NCBI GenBank assembly: GCA_030744635.1
Contig: JASLQE010000387.1
Coordinates: 1-29,017 of the forward strand
Source of the DNA: Dehalococcoidia bacterium
GTDB lineage: Bacteria > Chloroflexota > Dehalococcoidia > JACVQG01 > JAHKAY01
Direction of reading: 5' to 3'
Length of the DNA: 29,017 bases
A model generated the notes under the pieces. The model was given only the letters and a program-made list of their open reading frames with translations, searched no databases and was not told the origin of the DNA. The position numbers were made by a program, and so were the translations under genes. This document shows, one piece after another, positions 13,445 to 26,017 of the stretch; positions within the stretch are counted from its first letter, which is position 1, and every line of letters starts with the position of its first letter.

Positions 13445-14545
13445 CTGGCTGGTTTTCTCAGGGAGTTTCAGGGGCTGACAGCCAGCTTCTCAGTTGACGG
13501 AACCTCCCAGGGCCACCCTTTCCTTACCCGGGTTGACCCCCTTTCCGGCAATGTGGCCAAAATCTCACCGGAGCGTGCCCGCCGCACCATCGGCATATCG
13601 GTAGAGATGGACATGCGGCCAGCAACCCACTGCAGCTTTTGCGATTACGCCACCGCCACCCCCGAGCCTCGGATTCAGCATGCCGGTGGCGCGGTATCCG
13701 TGCCCAATCTGTACCCCTGGGAGAAGTACGACTGGATTACCATTTACCCGCCCTTTTCCCAGCACAAGGTGCTGCTCTCTGACCTCTACTTCGAGGACAT
13801 GGAGATGATGATGGAGTCCTCATACGACCTGGCCGAGCGATGCGCATATGAAGAGGATGTAATCGCTTTCATGGACTTCACCAACTGGGGTGCCTTCGCC
13901 GGAGCCTCTCAGCAGCACCCCCACTCCCAGCGCAAGAGCATCACCTTTATGCCGGATCCGGTTCAAGAGCGGGAGTGGCAGCGGTGTCTGGAAATTGTGG
14001 AGACGCTGGGGCGACATCCCTTTGACATCCTACTGCAGGAGGAGCGGGAGGACGGCCGTCGCCTTATCTTTGACAACGATGTGGTGGTGCTGGCCGCCTT
14101 TGCGCCCACCTGTTCGGACGAGCTGTTGGTCTTTCCCCGTGAGGACCTCTCCCATATTCTGCAGAGCACCCCCGCCCAGCGTAACCATCTTATGCGCCAA
14201 GTGCTGGGTATATTCCCCGCCCTGTTTCTATACCGGGGAATCACCGACCTCAATATCGCCATGCACATGGCCCCCTTCGCCTCTATGGAACCGGCCCGCA
14301 AGTACTTCAGGTGGCATATGCATGTCTACCCCCGCCGCTCCCGCCTGCCCGCCGATAGGGCCGGAGCCGAAATCGGTTTCCAGACCAGCGTGATTGATAC
14401 GCTTCCGGAGACTACCGCCGAGGCCCTGCGCCACTGGTACGAGGCCGGTCCCCGTGAGGAGATGGTGGCCCGGTGCGACGATGGCACCCCCAGCCCGCTG
14501 CTGGTGCGGGAGCTGCGCCGTATCTCCAACGGCAACGGCCACTAA
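13445..14545 (+). CDS. GalT-like (galactose-1-phosphate uridylyltransferase/HIT superfamily) nucleotidyltransferase, probable CTG start
   Basis: CSFC, VPNLYP, NWGAFAGASQQHPHSQ (HxHxQ), WHMHVYPR. The frame is open upstream of GTG 13553 and encodes RVDPLSG..KISPERARR, like the GalT N-terminus. Confidence 0.8.
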   Translation: MAGFLREFQGLTASFSVDGTSQGHPFLTRVDPLSGNVAKISPERARRTIGISVEMDMRPATHCSFCDYATATPEPRIQHAGGAVSVPNLYPWEKYDWITIYPPFSQHKVLLSDLYFEDMEMMMESSYDLAERCAYEEDVIAFMDFTNWGAFAGASQQHPHSQRKSITFMPDPVQEREWQRCLEIVETLGRHPFDILLQEEREDGRRLIFDNDVVVLAAFAPTCSDELLVFPREDLSHILQSTPAQRNHLMRQVLGIFPALFLYRGITDLNIAMHMAPFASMEPARKYFRWHMHVYPRRSRLPADRAGAEIGFQTSVIDTLPETTAEALRHWYEAGPREEMVARCDDGTPSPLLVRELRRISNGNGH

Positions 14546-19394: not shown

Positions 19395-19423
19395 TTGAAG
19401 GCAGCAGGCGATTGGTGTAGAAT
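19395..19423 (+). promoter_or_regulatory. Sigma70-type promoter of the his operon
   Basis: TTGAAG-N17-TAGAAT, ending 11 nt before the hisZ ATG. Confidence 0.55.
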
Positions 19424-19434
19424 TACCACTCGGT

Positions 19435-20640
19435 ATGGAGAAGTGCCGTGGCATGCGCGATATGCTCCCACAGGACATGCGACAGTTCCGCCGTGTTGAG
19501 GACCAGTTCCGGCAGTGCTGTGTTCAGTGGGGCTACCAGGAGGTAAGGACGCCCCTGCTGGAGTACCTGCACCTGTTCACCGCCACTGGCACCCTTACAC
19601 CGGATATGCTCAACCGGGTGTATTCCTTCCTGGACTGGGACGGCTGGAGCGGGGAGAGGGTGGTGCTGCGTCCGGATGGCACCATTCCCGCTGCACGGCT
19701 GTATATCACCGAGATGGCCCAACGCACCACCGCTAGGCTTTTCTACGTTCAGGATGTACTCTCCTTCGGGGCCACCGGCACGGAGTCCCGTGAGAAGTGG
19801 CAGGCCGGGGTGGAGGTGATGGGGGGCCGGTCTCCTCAGGCAGAGGTGGAGCTGGTGTCCCTGGCCCTGGAGGTGCTGGAGGGCTTGGGCCTGAAGCCTG
19901 AGCTACGGCTGGGCCACATGGGGTTGCTGCGCTCCCTTCTGGAGGAGTTGGAGGTGACGGAGGAGGAGGTGGTGGACCGCTTTACCGCTCAGGAGGGCCT
20001 GCTATGGGAGAGGCTGCGGGACTCCCGTCCCGAGATGGGGGAGGCCCTGGCCCTGGCGAAGCTGGAGGGCCGGTCACCGGGCTTCCTGGAGAACCTGGGC
20101 TCCGTCCTATTGCCCCATCTGCCTATCCTGCGGCAGCCCCTGGAGGAGTTCTCGGCCATCGCCAGGCTGCTCACTTCGCTGGACTGCCCCTATGCGATAG
20201 ACCTGGGTCTGGGGAGCGGCTTTGAGTACTACACCGGAGCGGTGTTCCACTTCTATTGCGGGGATGTGCGGGTAGGGGGTGGTGGCCGCTACGACAATCT
20301 GATACCTCTGCTGGGCGGCAAAGCTGTGCCCGCCACGGGGTTTGCCCTGTATGTAGACCGGATAATGTCCATGGTGCCTGGACCGGTATCCGGACCACCG
20401 GTGCTGGTGCAGGCCGATGAAGGCTGCTGGCCGTGGGCCTTCTCCCTGGCCGGCGAGATGCGCGCCCAGGGCATCGCCGCCGAGATGGCGGCGGGTGAGC
20501 CGATGGACCATCCGGGAGTCTCCGTGATGGTCCAGGAGGGGCCTGTTTATATTCTGCCGGGCAAGGGCCGCTTTGCCTCACCGGCGGAGGTAGTGCGGGT
20601 GTTGAAAGAGGGAGGGGATGCTGAAATTAGCCCTGCCTAA
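19435..20640 (+). CDS. hisZ: ATP phosphoribosyltransferase regulatory subunit (HisRS paralogue)
   Basis: RGMRDMLP, WGYQEVRTP, LRPDGT, QAGVE, EYYTG.VF, GGGRYDNL. It lacks the HisRS FRxERPQ motif and overlaps the hisG start. Confidence 0.85.
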   Translation: MEKCRGMRDMLPQDMRQFRRVEDQFRQCCVQWGYQEVRTPLLEYLHLFTATGTLTPDMLNRVYSFLDWDGWSGERVVLRPDGTIPAARLYITEMAQRTTARLFYVQDVLSFGATGTESREKWQAGVEVMGGRSPQAEVELVSLALEVLEGLGLKPELRLGHMGLLRSLLEELEVTEEEVVDRFTAQEGLLWERLRDSRPEMGEALALAKLEGRSPGFLENLGSVLLPHLPILRQPLEEFSAIARLLTSLDCPYAIDLGLGSGFEYYTGAVFHFYCGDVRVGGGGRYDNLIPLLGGKAVPATGFALYVDRIMSMVPGPVSGPPVLVQADEGCWPWAFSLAGEMRAQGIAAEMAAGEPMDHPGVSVMVQEGPVYILPGKGRFASPAEVVRVLKEGGDAEISPA

Positions 20641-21997
20641 GGGGCGGCTACAGGCCGCCTCCGGCTCTTATTTGGAACAGGCGGGATGGGGCCTTGAAGA
20701 CTACCAGCCCGGCTCACGCTCCTATCGTCCCACCACTGCCTTCCCCGGTGTGGAGGCCAAGGTCTTTCAGGAGAGGGACATCCCGGTCCAGGTGGCCATA
20801 GGCAACTACGATATCGGGATATGTGGTCTGGACTGGGTGGAGGAGCTCCTGGCCCGCTACCCTCAGAGCCCCCTGGTAAAGGTCATAGAGCTTGGCTATG
20901 GTGGGGGACAGCTCTTCCTGGCCTCCAGCAGCCTGTCTCCATGGGGCTCCGCAGCGGACCTGAGCCGGAATGGTGCGCTGCTGGTGCTGGCCGGAGAATA
21001 CCCCAATTTGGCGTGGACGGCCGCCATGCGGCTACGGCTGAAGCGTTTCCGGGTCTTTCCTCTGTGGGGTGCGGTGGAGGTGTACCCCCCTGAGGACGCT
21101 GACCTGGTGGTGGTGCGCTCACCATCGGCATCCCGCCTGAAGGAGCGGGGCCTGGTGCCCCTGTTCCCCCTGTGTCACACTACGGCATATCTCATTGCCA
21201 ACCGGGATAGCTGGCAGAGCAAAGATATGGCCGGGGCTATATCCAGCCTGCTGGAGGCTTCCCCTTCGGTGGACAGCCTTCAGGGACCTCGGGTGGAGTC
21301 TTCGGACTGGCTGCCCCTGTACGGGGGCAACTGGCTAAGGCTGGCCCTACCCGACGGCCACCAGAAGGAGCCTTCGGTGGACTTCCTGCGTAAAGCCGGG
21401 CTGGAGGTGGCTGGCTATGCCTCAGGGAAGAGCCGCCCCGACCTGGGTGTGGAGGGGGTGGCCACCAAGGTCATCCGGCCCCAGGATATGCCGCTCCAGG
21501 TGGCCTCCGGCAACTTTGATGTTGCCCTTACCGGCAAGGACTGGCTGCGCGACCACCTGTGCCAGTTCCCTTCCAGCCCCGTGGAGCAGTTGCTGGAGCT
21601 GGATTTCGGCTGGGTGCGGGTGGTGGCCGTGGTCTGCGGCGATGTGCCCGTCTCCTCGGCGGCGGAGCTCAGGGGCCTGATGGAGTCGGGTCGGATGGGC
21701 GGGCTACGGGTGGCCACGGAGTATGTCAACATAGCCGATAAGTTTGCCCGGGACCATCACCTGGGTCACTACCGCATCATACCCACCTGGGGGGCCACGG
21801 AGGCATTCCTCCCCGAAGATGCCGACCTCCTGATAGAGAACACCCAGACCGGCCAGACCCTGGCCCGGCACGGTCTGAAGATAATTGATGTGCTCTTCGA
21901 GTCCACTGCCTGTATCATCGGCTCCCGGGATATCGCCCCCCAACGCAGGGGGCAGCGGGATGCCCTTTTGCAGCGGTTGGCCGGGGCCGTGGGGTGA
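20618..21997 (+). CDS. hisG: ATP phosphoribosyltransferase with two tandem short-form HisG catalytic units
   Basis: Unit 1: LALPKGRL...DIPVQVAIGNYDIGICGLD. Unit 2 from about 21335: LALPDGH...RPQDMPLQVASGNFDVALTGKD...TGQTL. No ACT-like tail. Confidence 0.88.
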   Translation: MLKLALPKGRLQAASGSYLEQAGWGLEDYQPGSRSYRPTTAFPGVEAKVFQERDIPVQVAIGNYDIGICGLDWVEELLARYPQSPLVKVIELGYGGGQLFLASSSLSPWGSAADLSRNGALLVLAGEYPNLAWTAAMRLRLKRFRVFPLWGAVEVYPPEDADLVVVRSPSASRLKERGLVPLFPLCHTTAYLIANRDSWQSKDMAGAISSLLEASPSVDSLQGPRVESSDWLPLYGGNWLRLALPDGHQKEPSVDFLRKAGLEVAGYASGKSRPDLGVEGVATKVIRPQDMPLQVASGNFDVALTGKDWLRDHLCQFPSSPVEQLLELDFGWVRVVAVVCGDVPVSSAAELRGLMESGRMGGLRVATEYVNIADKFARDHHLGHYRIIPTWGATEAFLPEDADLLIENTQTGQTLARHGLKIIDVLFESTACIIGSRDIAPQRRGQRDALLQRLAGAVG

Positions 21998-22007
21998 GGG
22001 GTATACG

Positions 22008-22757
22008 GTGCCACCACTTTGCCTCCACCTGAGTCTGGCCCGGGATGCTTTATTCCAACTGGGGGATAGCCCCGGGGGAGGCCGTGGCCGCTACTTGATC
22101 GGTGCCACCCTGCCGGATATTCATATGATGTCGGACTTCGTCCGTGAGCATACCCACTATATGGACCTGGCGCAGCGGGAGGAGGGGGGCGAGGAGATTG
22201 CCCGCTTCTTCAAGGCCAACCCGCACTTGGCCCATGAAAGCAAAAACCCACCTACCCGTGCCCTGGTGGCCGGCTATCTGTCCCACCTGGTGACCGATAG
22301 CACCTGGATAGCTCGTATCTACCACCCCTACTTTGGGCCCGAGTCTTCGCTGTCAGGTGAACCCCTGGCCAACCTGCTGGACCGGTTGCTACAGTTTGAG
22401 CTGGACCGGAGGGAGCAGGAGGACATGGCCGCCATGGCGGCCATGGTCAAGAACATCGGGCTGGTATCCTGGGACAAGGAGGCGGCCCTGTTTGATGAGG
22501 ATAGCCTCATGCGCTGGCAGACCTTTGTCATGGATGCGGCCGTACGCCCGCATACCTGGGACCGCTTCCCAACATTCGTCCGCCACTATGTGGCACGGCA
22601 TGGAAATCTCAGAGAGGACCAGGTGAAGCGGTTCTTGTCCGACATCCCTGCCAGGCTGTCCTGGGTGCTGGAGCATGTGCCGCCGGAGGCTTTGGTCGCT
22701 TTTCGCCAGGGGGCGCTCCAGGGCTCGCTCCGGTTGGCGCGGGAGCGTGGGTGGTGA
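22008..22757 (+). CDS. Zinc-dependent phospholipase C-like (PLC/P1 nuclease fold) protein embedded in the his operon
   Basis: Start GTG 22008 after GAGGGG. N-terminal MPP..LH, then GATLPD, THY and GYLSHLVTD..W. Its stop overlaps the hisD GTG. Confidence 0.7.
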   Translation: MPPLCLHLSLARDALFQLGDSPGGGRGRYLIGATLPDIHMMSDFVREHTHYMDLAQREEGGEEIARFFKANPHLAHESKNPPTRALVAGYLSHLVTDSTWIARIYHPYFGPESSLSGEPLANLLDRLLQFELDRREQEDMAAMAAMVKNIGLVSWDKEAALFDEDSLMRWQTFVMDAAVRPHTWDRFPTFVRHYVARHGNLREDQVKRFLSDIPARLSWVLEHVPPEALVAFRQGALQGSLRLARERGW

Positions 22758-24071
22758 GGAACATAGGGATAGAGGAGGCCCGGCGTCGGTTCCTGGGCCG
22801 CAGCCCCCTGGATATGCTCCCCTTTCCCGCTCCAGTGGCCCAGCGCCTGGAGGAGGTTTTCGGCCCGGGGGTCTCTCCCCTGGAGGCGGTGCGGCGCACA
22901 ATCACCGAAGTCCGGGACCGGGGGGATGAGGCAGTGGCCGAGCTATCCTGGAAGCTGGACGGGGTGGAGGTGCCCCGGGTGGAGGTGCCCCCTGGGCAGG
23001 TAACGGCCGCCCGGGATGGCATCCCTCCGGCCCTGGCCGCCGCCATGAGGCTGGCGGCGGACCGCATAAGGACTTTCCATGAGAGGGGCCGCCCCGAGGA
23101 CTTCTTCGACCCCCAGGAAGGGGTGGGCCGGAAAATGGTGCCGATGGACCGGGTGGGCATATATGTGCCCGGCGGCCGGGCGGCATACCCCTCCACAGTG
23201 CTCATGACGGCCATCCCCGCCCGCATCGCCGGGGTGGAAGAGGTGATAGTAGCCACCCCACCCCAGGCCGGCGGAGTGGCCCCGCTGGTGCTGGCGGCCT
23301 GCGCCCTGGCCGGGGTGGACCGCGTGTTCGCCATGGGGGGCGCTCAAGCCATAGCCGCCTTGGCCTACGGCACCGCTTCGGTTCCCGTCGTGGACACGGT
23401 GCGGCCCCGGCACCCTGTTCGTCATGCTGGCCAAACGGGAGGTCTTTGGCCAGGTAGACATAGATGGCTTCTATGGACCTACGGAGACGGTGGTGGTGGC
23501 CGATGATACCGCTGACCCTGCCCTGTGTGCCGCCGAGCTTTTGGCCCAGGCAGAGCACGACCCCCTGGCATCAGCCCTGCTCCTCACCCCCTCGGTAAGC
23601 GTGGCTAAGGGGGTGGTCCGGGAGTCGGAGGCCCAGCTTGAGGGACTGGAACGGCGCGACATCGCTGGCCAGTCGTTGGAAGGGCGGGGCGCCGTTATCA
23701 AGGTGGATGACCTGTCCCAGGCCCTTGATTTCGTCAACTCCTACGCCCCGGAGCACCTTACCCTGCTAATGGCCGATGCCGAAGGGTTCGCCGCCGGGGT
23801 GCGCCACACCGGGTGCATCTTCCTGGGGGGTGGGGAGGCCTTCGGCGACTATGTGGCCGGTCCCAGCCATGTGCTGCCCACCGGGGGTAGCGCCCGCTTC
23901 TCCTCCCCCCTTGGGGTGGAGTCTTTCCTGAAGGTAACCAGCGTGGTGGCCCTCAACAGTAATATAATGGAGGCGACCGCGGCGGCGGCGGATGAGCTTG
24001 CCCGCGCCGAGGGCCTCACCGCCCACGCCGCCGCCATACAGAGAATGTTGAGAAGGAAGGGCCCAAGGTGA
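22751..24071 (+). pseudogene. hisD: Histidinol dehydrogenase, split by an apparent 2-bp deletion near 23399 (possible sequencing error)
   Basis: VGIYVPGG.A.YPSTVLM and GGAQAIAALAYG lie in the first frame. CGPG.LFVMLAKR, ID..GPTE, YAPEHL and GDYVAGPSHVLPTG lie in the second. Confidence 0.9.
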
Positions 24072-25174
24072 CCTGGGAGAAGATGCTGCGTCCCCATCTG
24101 TCCGCTCTGGAACCCTACCAGCCCATCGTGCCCCTGGAGGTGCTGGCAAAGGAGGCGGGCAAGACGGTGGCCGAGGTCATCAAGCTGGATGGCAACGAGA
24201 ACCCCTACGGCCACTCCCCCCGCGTTAACCGCGCAATGGCCGAATACCCCTTTTTCCATATCTATCCGGACCCCGACCAGCGGCAGCTACGGCAGGCCCT
24301 GGAGGGCTATGTGGGGCTGGGTGCGGAGCATATCGTGGTCGGCGCGGGCAGCGACGAGATAATAGACCTGCTGCTACGGCTCTTCCTGGAGCCTGGGGAC
24401 CAGGTAATTAACCTGACTCCCACCTTCGGCATGTACCCCTTCAGCACCCACATCTGCGGAGGAGAGGTGGTGGAGGTGCCCCGGGACGAGGCCTTTGAGA
24501 TAGACCTGGAGGAGATGAGGCGGAAGGTGAGGCCGAGGGTCAAAGCGGTCTTCGTGGCCTCCCCCAACAACCCCAGCGGCAACCTGGCCACACAGGAGCA
24601 GGTGCTGGGGCTGCTGGAGATGGGGCTGCTGGTAGTGGTGGATGAGGCCTATTACGAGTTCGCCGGGGAGACAGCGATCCCCTTGGTGAAAGAGCACCCC
24701 AACCTGGTGGTGCTGCGCACCTTCAGCAAGTGGGCGGGACTGGCCGGGCTGCGGGTGGGCTATGCCATGTGCCACCCCGGACTGGTGGAGCACATCATGC
24801 GCATCAAGCCGCCCTACAACCTGAATGTGGCCGCACAGGTGGCGGCCCTGGAGTCCCTGAAGGACCTGGAGTACCTTCAGGCCAGGGTGCGGGACATCGT
24901 GGAGGAGCGGGAGCGTCTCTACCGCCTCCTTCAGGGGTTGGATTCTCTGCACCCCTTTCCCTCCCGGGCCAACTTCATCCTGTGCTCCCTGAAGGGATGG
25001 GATGCCAGGGAGGCGTATCTGCGACTCCGGGGGGAGGGAATATTCCTGCGCTACTTCAGCAACCCGCGGATGAGCCACTGCCTGCGTATCAGCGTGGGCA
25101 AGCCGGAGCAAAGCGATGCCGCTCTGGCAGCGTTGAACCAGGCTGAAAAAGAGCTGGCAGGACGGCACAAATGA
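24068..25174 (+). CDS. hisC: Histidinol-phosphate aminotransferase
   Basis: KLDGNENPYG, GAGSDEII, SPNNPSG, DEAYYEF, RTFSKWAGLAGLRVGY. GTGA overlap with hisD. Confidence 0.96.
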   Translation: MTWEKMLRPHLSALEPYQPIVPLEVLAKEAGKTVAEVIKLDGNENPYGHSPRVNRAMAEYPFFHIYPDPDQRQLRQALEGYVGLGAEHIVVGAGSDEIIDLLLRLFLEPGDQVINLTPTFGMYPFSTHICGGEVVEVPRDEAFEIDLEEMRRKVRPRVKAVFVASPNNPSGNLATQEQVLGLLEMGLLVVVDEAYYEFAGETAIPLVKEHPNLVVLRTFSKWAGLAGLRVGYAMCHPGLVEHIMRIKPPYNLNVAAQVAALESLKDLEYLQARVRDIVEERERLYRLLQGLDSLHPFPSRANFILCSLKGWDAREAYLRLRGEGIFLRYFSNPRMSHCLRISVGKPEQSDAALAALNQAEKELAGRHK

Positions 25175-25417: not shown

Positions 25418-26017
25418 ATGTCTGATGTAGTTGATGCCCCCCGCAAGGCCGCGGTGCGCCGCCAGACCGCCGAGACCACCATCAGCGTGGAGCTGGACCT
25501 GGACGGACAGGGCCGCTGGCAGATTACGACCGGGGTGACCCTTTTCGACCACTTCCTGGCCCAGCTTGCCAGACACGGTCTCTTTGACATAAACATCTCC
25601 GCCACCGGAGACGAACAGCACCACCTGGTAGAGGATGTGGGGCTGTGCCTGGGCCGGGCCTTTGACCAGGCCCTGGGGGAGAGGCGGGGCATCGTCCGCA
25701 TGGGCAACGCCATTGTGCCGATGGACGAATCGCTGGCCCTGGTGGCCGTGGACATCAGCGGCCGTGGATATGCGGTGATAGACCCCGCCCTGGAGGCGGC
25801 GGTGGGGGGGATAGAGGCGGACATGGTACGCCACTGCCTGCACTCCCTGGCCCAAGAGGCCAGGTTCAACCTGCATGTCCAGATACTGAAGGGCAGCAAC
25901 GACCATCATCGGGCCGAGGCCGCCTTCAAGTCTCTGGCCCGCGCCCTCAAGGCCGCCACCCGATTTGACGACCGCCTGGGCGGCACTGTCCCCAGCACCA
26001 AGGGCACCATCGGGTAG
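25418..26017 (+). CDS. hisB: Imidazoleglycerol-phosphate dehydratase (monofunctional)
   Basis: [44 protein letters not shown]. No N-terminal phosphatase domain. Start set at ATG 25418. Confidence 0.95.

Follow-up and report, generated by a model that had tools for sequence, protein, structure and literature searches.

Three superfamilies are known to provide histidinol-phosphate phosphatase (HolPase) activity: HAD (HisB-N and the HisN of P. aeruginosa), PHP (HisJ and HisK), and IMPase-like proteins (the HisN of C. glutamicum) (PMC9798254, PMC10804674, PMC5516325). Among the gaps in amino-acid biosynthesis that have no explanation, the HolPase is the most frequent. About 32% of the organisms presumed to make histidine have none annotated (PMC10804674), and in the GapMind 2026 study, which mentions no phospholipase-type candidate, hisN was the commonest remaining gap, in 42 of 208 prototrophs (PMC13759103). 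The other described systems closest to the gene studied here are the zinc-dependent phospholipases C (PLC), which are secreted lipases or toxins, and the S1-P1 nucleases or 3'-nucleotidases, which also act as phosphomonoesterases (PMC5201275). Our literature search, whose coverage left out most subscription journals, returned no report of a HolPase of the PLC type or from the family PF00882. We know of no HolPase with the PLC/S1-P1 fold.

The window, i.e. the whole stretch of DNA that we analyzed, is a contig of 29,017 nt from a metagenome-assembled genome (MAG) of Dehalococcoidia that is 84.6% complete. Its histidine genes are in the order hisZ-hisG-X-hisD-hisC-hisB, where X is the gene under study:

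19435..20640, + strand: hisZ, ATP phosphoribosyltransferase regulatory subunit (PF13393, and TIGR00443 as best match under its cut-off; also upstream of hisG in homologous loci)
20618..21997, + strand: hisG, tandem two-domain ATP phosphoribosyltransferase of 459 aa (TIGR00070 over cut-off in two stretches)
22008..22757, + strand: gene X, soluble protein of predicted PLC/S1-P1 fold, candidate HolPase (PF00882 over cut-off, AlphaFold2 model, VIA-align, conservation)
22754..24071, + strand: hisD, histidinol dehydrogenase, in two frames (PF00815 halves 13-192 and 202-408)
24068..25174, + strand: hisC, histidinol-phosphate aminotransferase, which makes the proposed substrate of X (TIGR01141 over cut-off)
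25418..26017, + strand: hisB, monofunctional imidazoleglycerol-phosphate dehydratase (IGPD), start inferred (PF00475 only and no HAD domain; NF002116, the monofunctional HisB model, over cut-off)

Gene X encodes 249 aa from a GTG start. The coordinates confirm the tight spacing reported in the initial annotation: X begins after a gap of 10 nt from the hisG stop (21997), and its own TGA (22755-22757) overlaps the hisD start, a GTG at 22754 (or 22751). The hisD gene has a 2-nt deletion near 23397-23400 and two nearby substitutions (23390-23415) relative to the intact locus of the same genus (L107), and its split into two frames is a probable assembly error. The other remarks made on the cluster also hold. 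HisB is monofunctional, none of the genes of the cluster within the window encodes a phosphatase, and further histidine genes lie away from it: contig C173 of the same genome carries hisA and hisF, and contig C88 carries a monofunctional hisI. A sigma-70-like site (9 of 12 positions) lies just 5' of hisZ at 19395-19423, in a scan whose count of sites was near background. Elsewhere in the window, 13553-14545 encodes a GalT or Ap4A-phosphorylase-like protein with weak Pfam matches (E about 0.009).

X had been described as Zn-PLC-like, and both the profile search and the structure prediction agree with this. PF00882 matches residues 7-107 with E=1.9e-7 and 31.6 bits, over the gathering cut-off of 26.8. 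NCBIfam gave no match at all, and the HAD, PHP, and IMPase-like HolPase models of Pfam and NCBIfam gave none at E 0.1, which places X in none of the three HolPase superfamilies. The AlphaFold2 model (pLDDT 88.6) is all-helical. When it was compared with known structures by VIA-align, the six top matches were three PLC (B. cereus 1ah7, Listeria PlcB 8cqm, and the N-domain of clostridial alpha-toxin 1olp; Z 6.6-7.4, rmsd 4.3-5.2, 151-164 residues aligned, 11-14% identity) and three S1-P1 enzymes (5fb9, 8qjl, 3w52; Z 5.5-5.8, 8-14% identity), followed by an unrelated protein at 3.5, values that are modest for a helical protein. Foldseek and sequence searches against the PDB gave no match, and the credible matches in the Atlas searches were unnamed or PF00882 clusters only. 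Hence, it is the combination of Pfam match, motif order, and VIA-align, with modest Z values and an empty Foldseek result, that indicates that X is a member of the Zn-dependent PLC/S1-P1 superfamily.

With PLC, X shares the fold and the ligand pattern of an N-terminal residue, His, Asp, His, and HxxxD. In contrast to PLC, it lacks a signal peptide or propeptide, the histidines of the third zinc site are replaced, and the gene is part of an amino-acid biosynthesis operon. With S1-P1 enzymes, it shares the fold and a catalytic Asp with a basic residue for phosphate binding after it, whereas the trinuclear site is not conserved and nothing indicates binding of nucleic acids. We found neither signal peptide nor propeptide nor hydrophobic segment in X (highest 19-residue hydropathy of 0.88), and a start-type codon lies immediately 5' of the invariant Pro codon in 213 loci. 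X is therefore predicted to be cytoplasmic.

Across 215 homologs from 34 families, 14 residues are 99-100% conserved: P2, H7, G32, P36, D37, R46, H50, G89, H93, D97, F109, D125, Q129, and W170. R126 is conserved as well. The metal-ligand-type motifs that the initial annotation had picked out (H7 near the N-terminus, P36-D37, T49-H50, and H93-x3-D97) are 97-100% conserved in these homologs. We took the ligand numbering of PLC as a guide to the metal sites of X, and by motif order P2, H7, D37, H50, H93, and D97, kept in 214 to 215 of the 215 sequences, would correspond to two of the three metal sites. In the VIA-align superposition, residue 2 of the model is aligned with residue 1 of the PLC chain; for PLC, the functions of W1 and D55 have been described (PMC10576769). 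D37 is similar to the Asp that acts as general base in S1 nuclease, and R46 to the Lys/Arg that binds phosphate there (PMC5201275). The caveat about the third zinc site, made of two His and a Glu/Asp, was justified. There is no conserved His after D97, and position 129 holds a Gln in 214 of 215 sequences and a His in some distant homologs, so that by this alignment the site is lost or remodelled. Removal of Met ahead of Pro-Pro may be inefficient, which would affect the N-terminal metal ligand and is a point against the HolPase reading set out below. Judged from the sequences, X is a real variant of the PLC/S1-P1 superfamily and a conserved enzyme of his operons without prior characterisation.

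A profile search identified homologs of X in 181 of the 301 sampled genomes of the class, nearly always as a single match (genome G243 enters only genome tallies of this kind). The closest homologs are labelled Dehalococcoidia, and a metagenome scan with a single query returned one locus. Outside the class we found only weak homologs, which lack the D125-R126-x-x-Q129 signature and have no his genes in their vicinity. PF00882 proteins of Chloroflexota encoded outside his operons (P0196, P0200, P0216, and family f94; E about 1e-19 to 1e-36) share the metal core, R46, and T49-H50 with X, but have H-N-x-x-R or Q-x-A-L-H-x-x-x-E at positions 125-133, where X has D-R-x-x-Q.

The hisG-X-hisD neighbourhood is conserved among relatives. 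Of the 217 testable loci, in which some genomes are represented twice, 216 have hisD directly 3' of X. These are all the testable loci of the class, and the exception is a distant homolog in another context. The stop of X overlaps the start of hisD in most loci, and hisG is upstream in most. In f25 and in two f18 genomes there is an X-hisD-hisC(-hisB) unit with hisG elsewhere (the position of hisG was checked in five genomes). X thus stays in f25 with hisD and hisC, whose products act on both sides of the HolPase step. Genomes without X mostly have hisG and hisD next to each other, and we found no displaced phosphatase in the slot of X in their operons, nor a phosphatase common to X-negative lineages in 40 loci with hisF/hisI clusters. 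In a HisD tree, X-positive and X-negative lineages are interleaved, with 10 parsimony changes, of which at least 3 are forced by strong branches. This fits an ancestral gene repeatedly lost, and X was probably present in the ancestor of the class and lost several times. The rate of X relative to HisD is 1.8-2.1 in f41, f54, and f18 and 1.0-1.6 in most families; f8 and f51 break this pattern.

The distribution and gene context thus provide good support for a link to late histidine synthesis, and X very probably has a role of some kind there. X could instead be an enzyme with no part in histidine synthesis, brought into the operon on a single occasion and kept there by the overlap with the hisD start. 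Its distant homologs in Chloroflexota, with the same metal core, do occur in unrelated contexts, and birA likewise has a place upstream of hisZ in many loci. However, no member of the class among the 34 families examined has X apart from hisD, whereas hisG and hisB do move, which makes pure hitchhiking unlikely. Four genomes of X-positive families (G067, G070, G160, G176) also lack X and hisD together, although assembly gaps could be the cause.

The same overlap, by coupling translation, would provide matched amounts of X and HisD if X were a non-catalytic partner of HisD, with a zinc-handling or regulatory function. The loss of the third metal site fits such a partner, and the distances of X and HisD are correlated (r=0.74), a correlation that shared ancestry explains. 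Yet we found no HisD residue convincingly specific to lineages with X, and D37 and R46, both invariant, look like the general base and the phosphate-binding residue of S1-P1 enzymes (PMC5201275). Of the explanations considered here, we regard this one as the least probable. Prediction of an X-HisD complex scored 0.00 and has no bearing either way.

Our proposal, which we hold with evenly balanced confidence, is that X is a cytoplasmic two-metal phosphomonoesterase that serves as the HolPase in many Dehalococcoidia. It would share metal dependence with the known HolPases, whose genes are likewise often found among his genes. The chances are similarly even that the fold of the three-zinc phosphodiesterases was remodelled in this lineage into a cytoplasmic monoesterase with two metals and a part in core metabolism, a HolPase probably ancestral in the class. 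If so, X would represent a fourth, structurally unrelated superfamily for this step, the PLC/P1 fold would gain a role in central metabolism, and the HolPase gap would be filled for many Dehalococcoidia. If not, X is still a conserved, apparently catalytic gene of his operons without an assigned function.

If B. cereus PLC and S1 nuclease are taken as models, Pro2 (through its amine and carbonyl, once Met is removed), H7, and D97 would hold the first metal, and D37, H50, H93, and D97 the second. The phosphate would be bound between the two metals and Arg46/Arg126, where the two arginines would stand in for the lost third zinc, and Asp37 would activate a metal-bound water. D125, Q129, and W/Y100 may bind the amino-imidazole part of the substrate. 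X would thus take up the histidinol phosphate made by HisC and pass histidinol to HisD, whose translation would be coupled to its own.

Several observations argue for the HolPase reading. The X-hisD-hisC(-hisB) units of f25 and two f18 genomes cover the last steps of the pathway, among which the phosphatase alone is unassigned, and HisN-like and HisJ-like matches are both missing from 107 of the 181 X-positive genomes. We searched the genome of the window for conventional phosphatases and found no canonical HolPase at its 84.6% completeness. PHP-type HisJ is missing, the single IMPase has no motif 5 and scores under the HisN cut-off, and the TIGR01656 match adjoins sedoheptulose-phosphate isomerase genes in a heptose cluster and reads as GmhB.

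Across the class the picture is less favourable. Our tallies cover HisN-like and HisJ-like proteins and leave out the HAD-type HolPases, which cannot be counted reliably. Of the 181 X-positive genomes, 56 have a HisN-like match (39 if f25 is left out), vs 16 of the 120 X-negative ones; HisJ-like matches occur in 19 vs 4, and 100 of the 120 X-negative genomes have neither, while hisD is present in about nine in ten of the X-negative genomes tested. X-negative genomes are therefore not enriched in HisN or HisJ, and the distribution of X is not complementary to that of known HolPases. On the favourable side, a HisN-like gene occurs in X-negative f6 and in two f22 genomes (with motif 5 in f6 and in G295) and is missing from the X-positive genomes G035 and G169.

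The main objection to the HolPase reading is that HisN-like IMPases with motif 5 co-occur with an intact X in f18 and f41. We judged co-occurring IMPases by motif 5 of Kulis-Horn et al. (PMC5516325), and it is perfect in the HisN-like proteins of f18 (all 11 loci checked) and f41 (11 loci reaching the gene). The f41 gene is found 0-3.5 kb downstream of hisB, in one case at a distance of 36 nt. All invariant residues of X are intact in both families. The HisN-like proteins of f25 are probably inositol monophosphatases, since they lack the Gly of motif 5 and their gene is beside that of myo-inositol-1-phosphate synthase. These f25 IMPases are near or over the TIGR02067 HisN cut-off, are encoded divergently to the synthase (L225:1352-3501 and 13 other loci), and are likely mis-annotated as HisN.

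HisN-like IMPases can be phosphoserine phosphatases (SerB) (PMC13759103), and no TIGR00338 SerB was found in any of the 80 Dehalococcoidia genomes that we searched, a class-wide gap for this enzyme and, being uniform, a result of no discriminating value. Together, these two points soften the objection from f18 and f41 without removing it. X and HisN may duplicate each other in these families, or the HisN-like protein may have another function, e.g. as phosphoserine phosphatase. Overall, the new HolPase suggested by the initial annotation has in its favour the fold, the conservation of the ligands, a class-wide position in his operons, and a genome of origin without a canonical HolPase. It is weakened by the co-occurrence with HisN, the lack of complementarity, the lost third zinc site, and a further HolPase candidate of HAD-IA type in some families (see below). 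Of the findings that were to speak against it, the co-occurrence of a canonical phosphatase was observed in part, as a HisN-type IMPase with intact motif 5 in f18 and f41.

The presence of an intact X beside HisN with motif 5 would be accounted for if X were an accessory phosphohydrolase of the pathway that dephosphorylates a by-product or an excess intermediate (imidazole-acetol phosphate, imidazoleglycerol phosphate, AICAR/ZMP, or a cyclic PRPP product), or a phosphatase with a broad range of amino-alcohol phosphates, phosphoserine included. It would also account for the 15 genomes that carry X, such a HisN, and HisE together, and for the repeated clean losses on the HisD tree, and the class-wide lack of SerB fits the broader activity. 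We consider this possible, with clearly less confidence than the HolPase reading. We know of no precedent for an accessory enzyme of this sort in a his operon, and X is tied to hisD and hisC rather than to the AICAR-releasing hisFH or to serine genes.

The position of X after hisG also raises the question of whether it replaces HisE, the phosphoribosyl-ATP pyrophosphohydrolase. The genome of the window, 84.6% complete, has no match to HisE (PF01503) and its HisI is monofunctional; moreover, 110 of the 181 X-positive genomes lack a full-length HisE match. However, the other 71 have HisE, the f18 operon hisE-hisG-X-hisD holds both genes, and 90 X-negative genomes likewise lack HisE. In f25, HisE is missing and X is yet beside hisD, with hisG elsewhere. 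The co-occurrence, even within one operon, and the lack of complementarity disfavour X as a HisE substitute, which we find very unlikely.

A few other observations were made on histidine genes of the class. A HAD-IA hydrolase of ~245 aa, resembling type II dehalogenases and lacking the DxD motif, is encoded between hisF and hisIE in f8, f32, f59, f64, f70, and f78 (L172:2094-2813, L176:2173-2895, L183:365-1102, L201:207-989), in X-positive and X-negative genomes. It is conserved at this position, another his-linked enzyme without an assigned role, and a further HolPase candidate in some families. In the X-negative genome G043, a HAD hydrolase gene directly follows hisB (L152:8877-9635) and could encode a replacement phosphatase. 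In an informal tally, lineages with the tandem two-domain HisG mostly lack HisE, and those with a single HisG of ~340 aa have HisIE (f6, f7, f8, f23, f30, f32, f37, f59, f64, f78). The second HisG domain may thus be linked to the gap in HisE, with f4 and f25 as exceptions. Finally, many f18 genomes have a short hisE and a hisG of ~280 aa in place of hisZ and the tandem hisG (L242:5900-7020; L354:1079-2300). We take this pair to resemble the actinobacterial arrangement, and it is a possible replacement by transfer.
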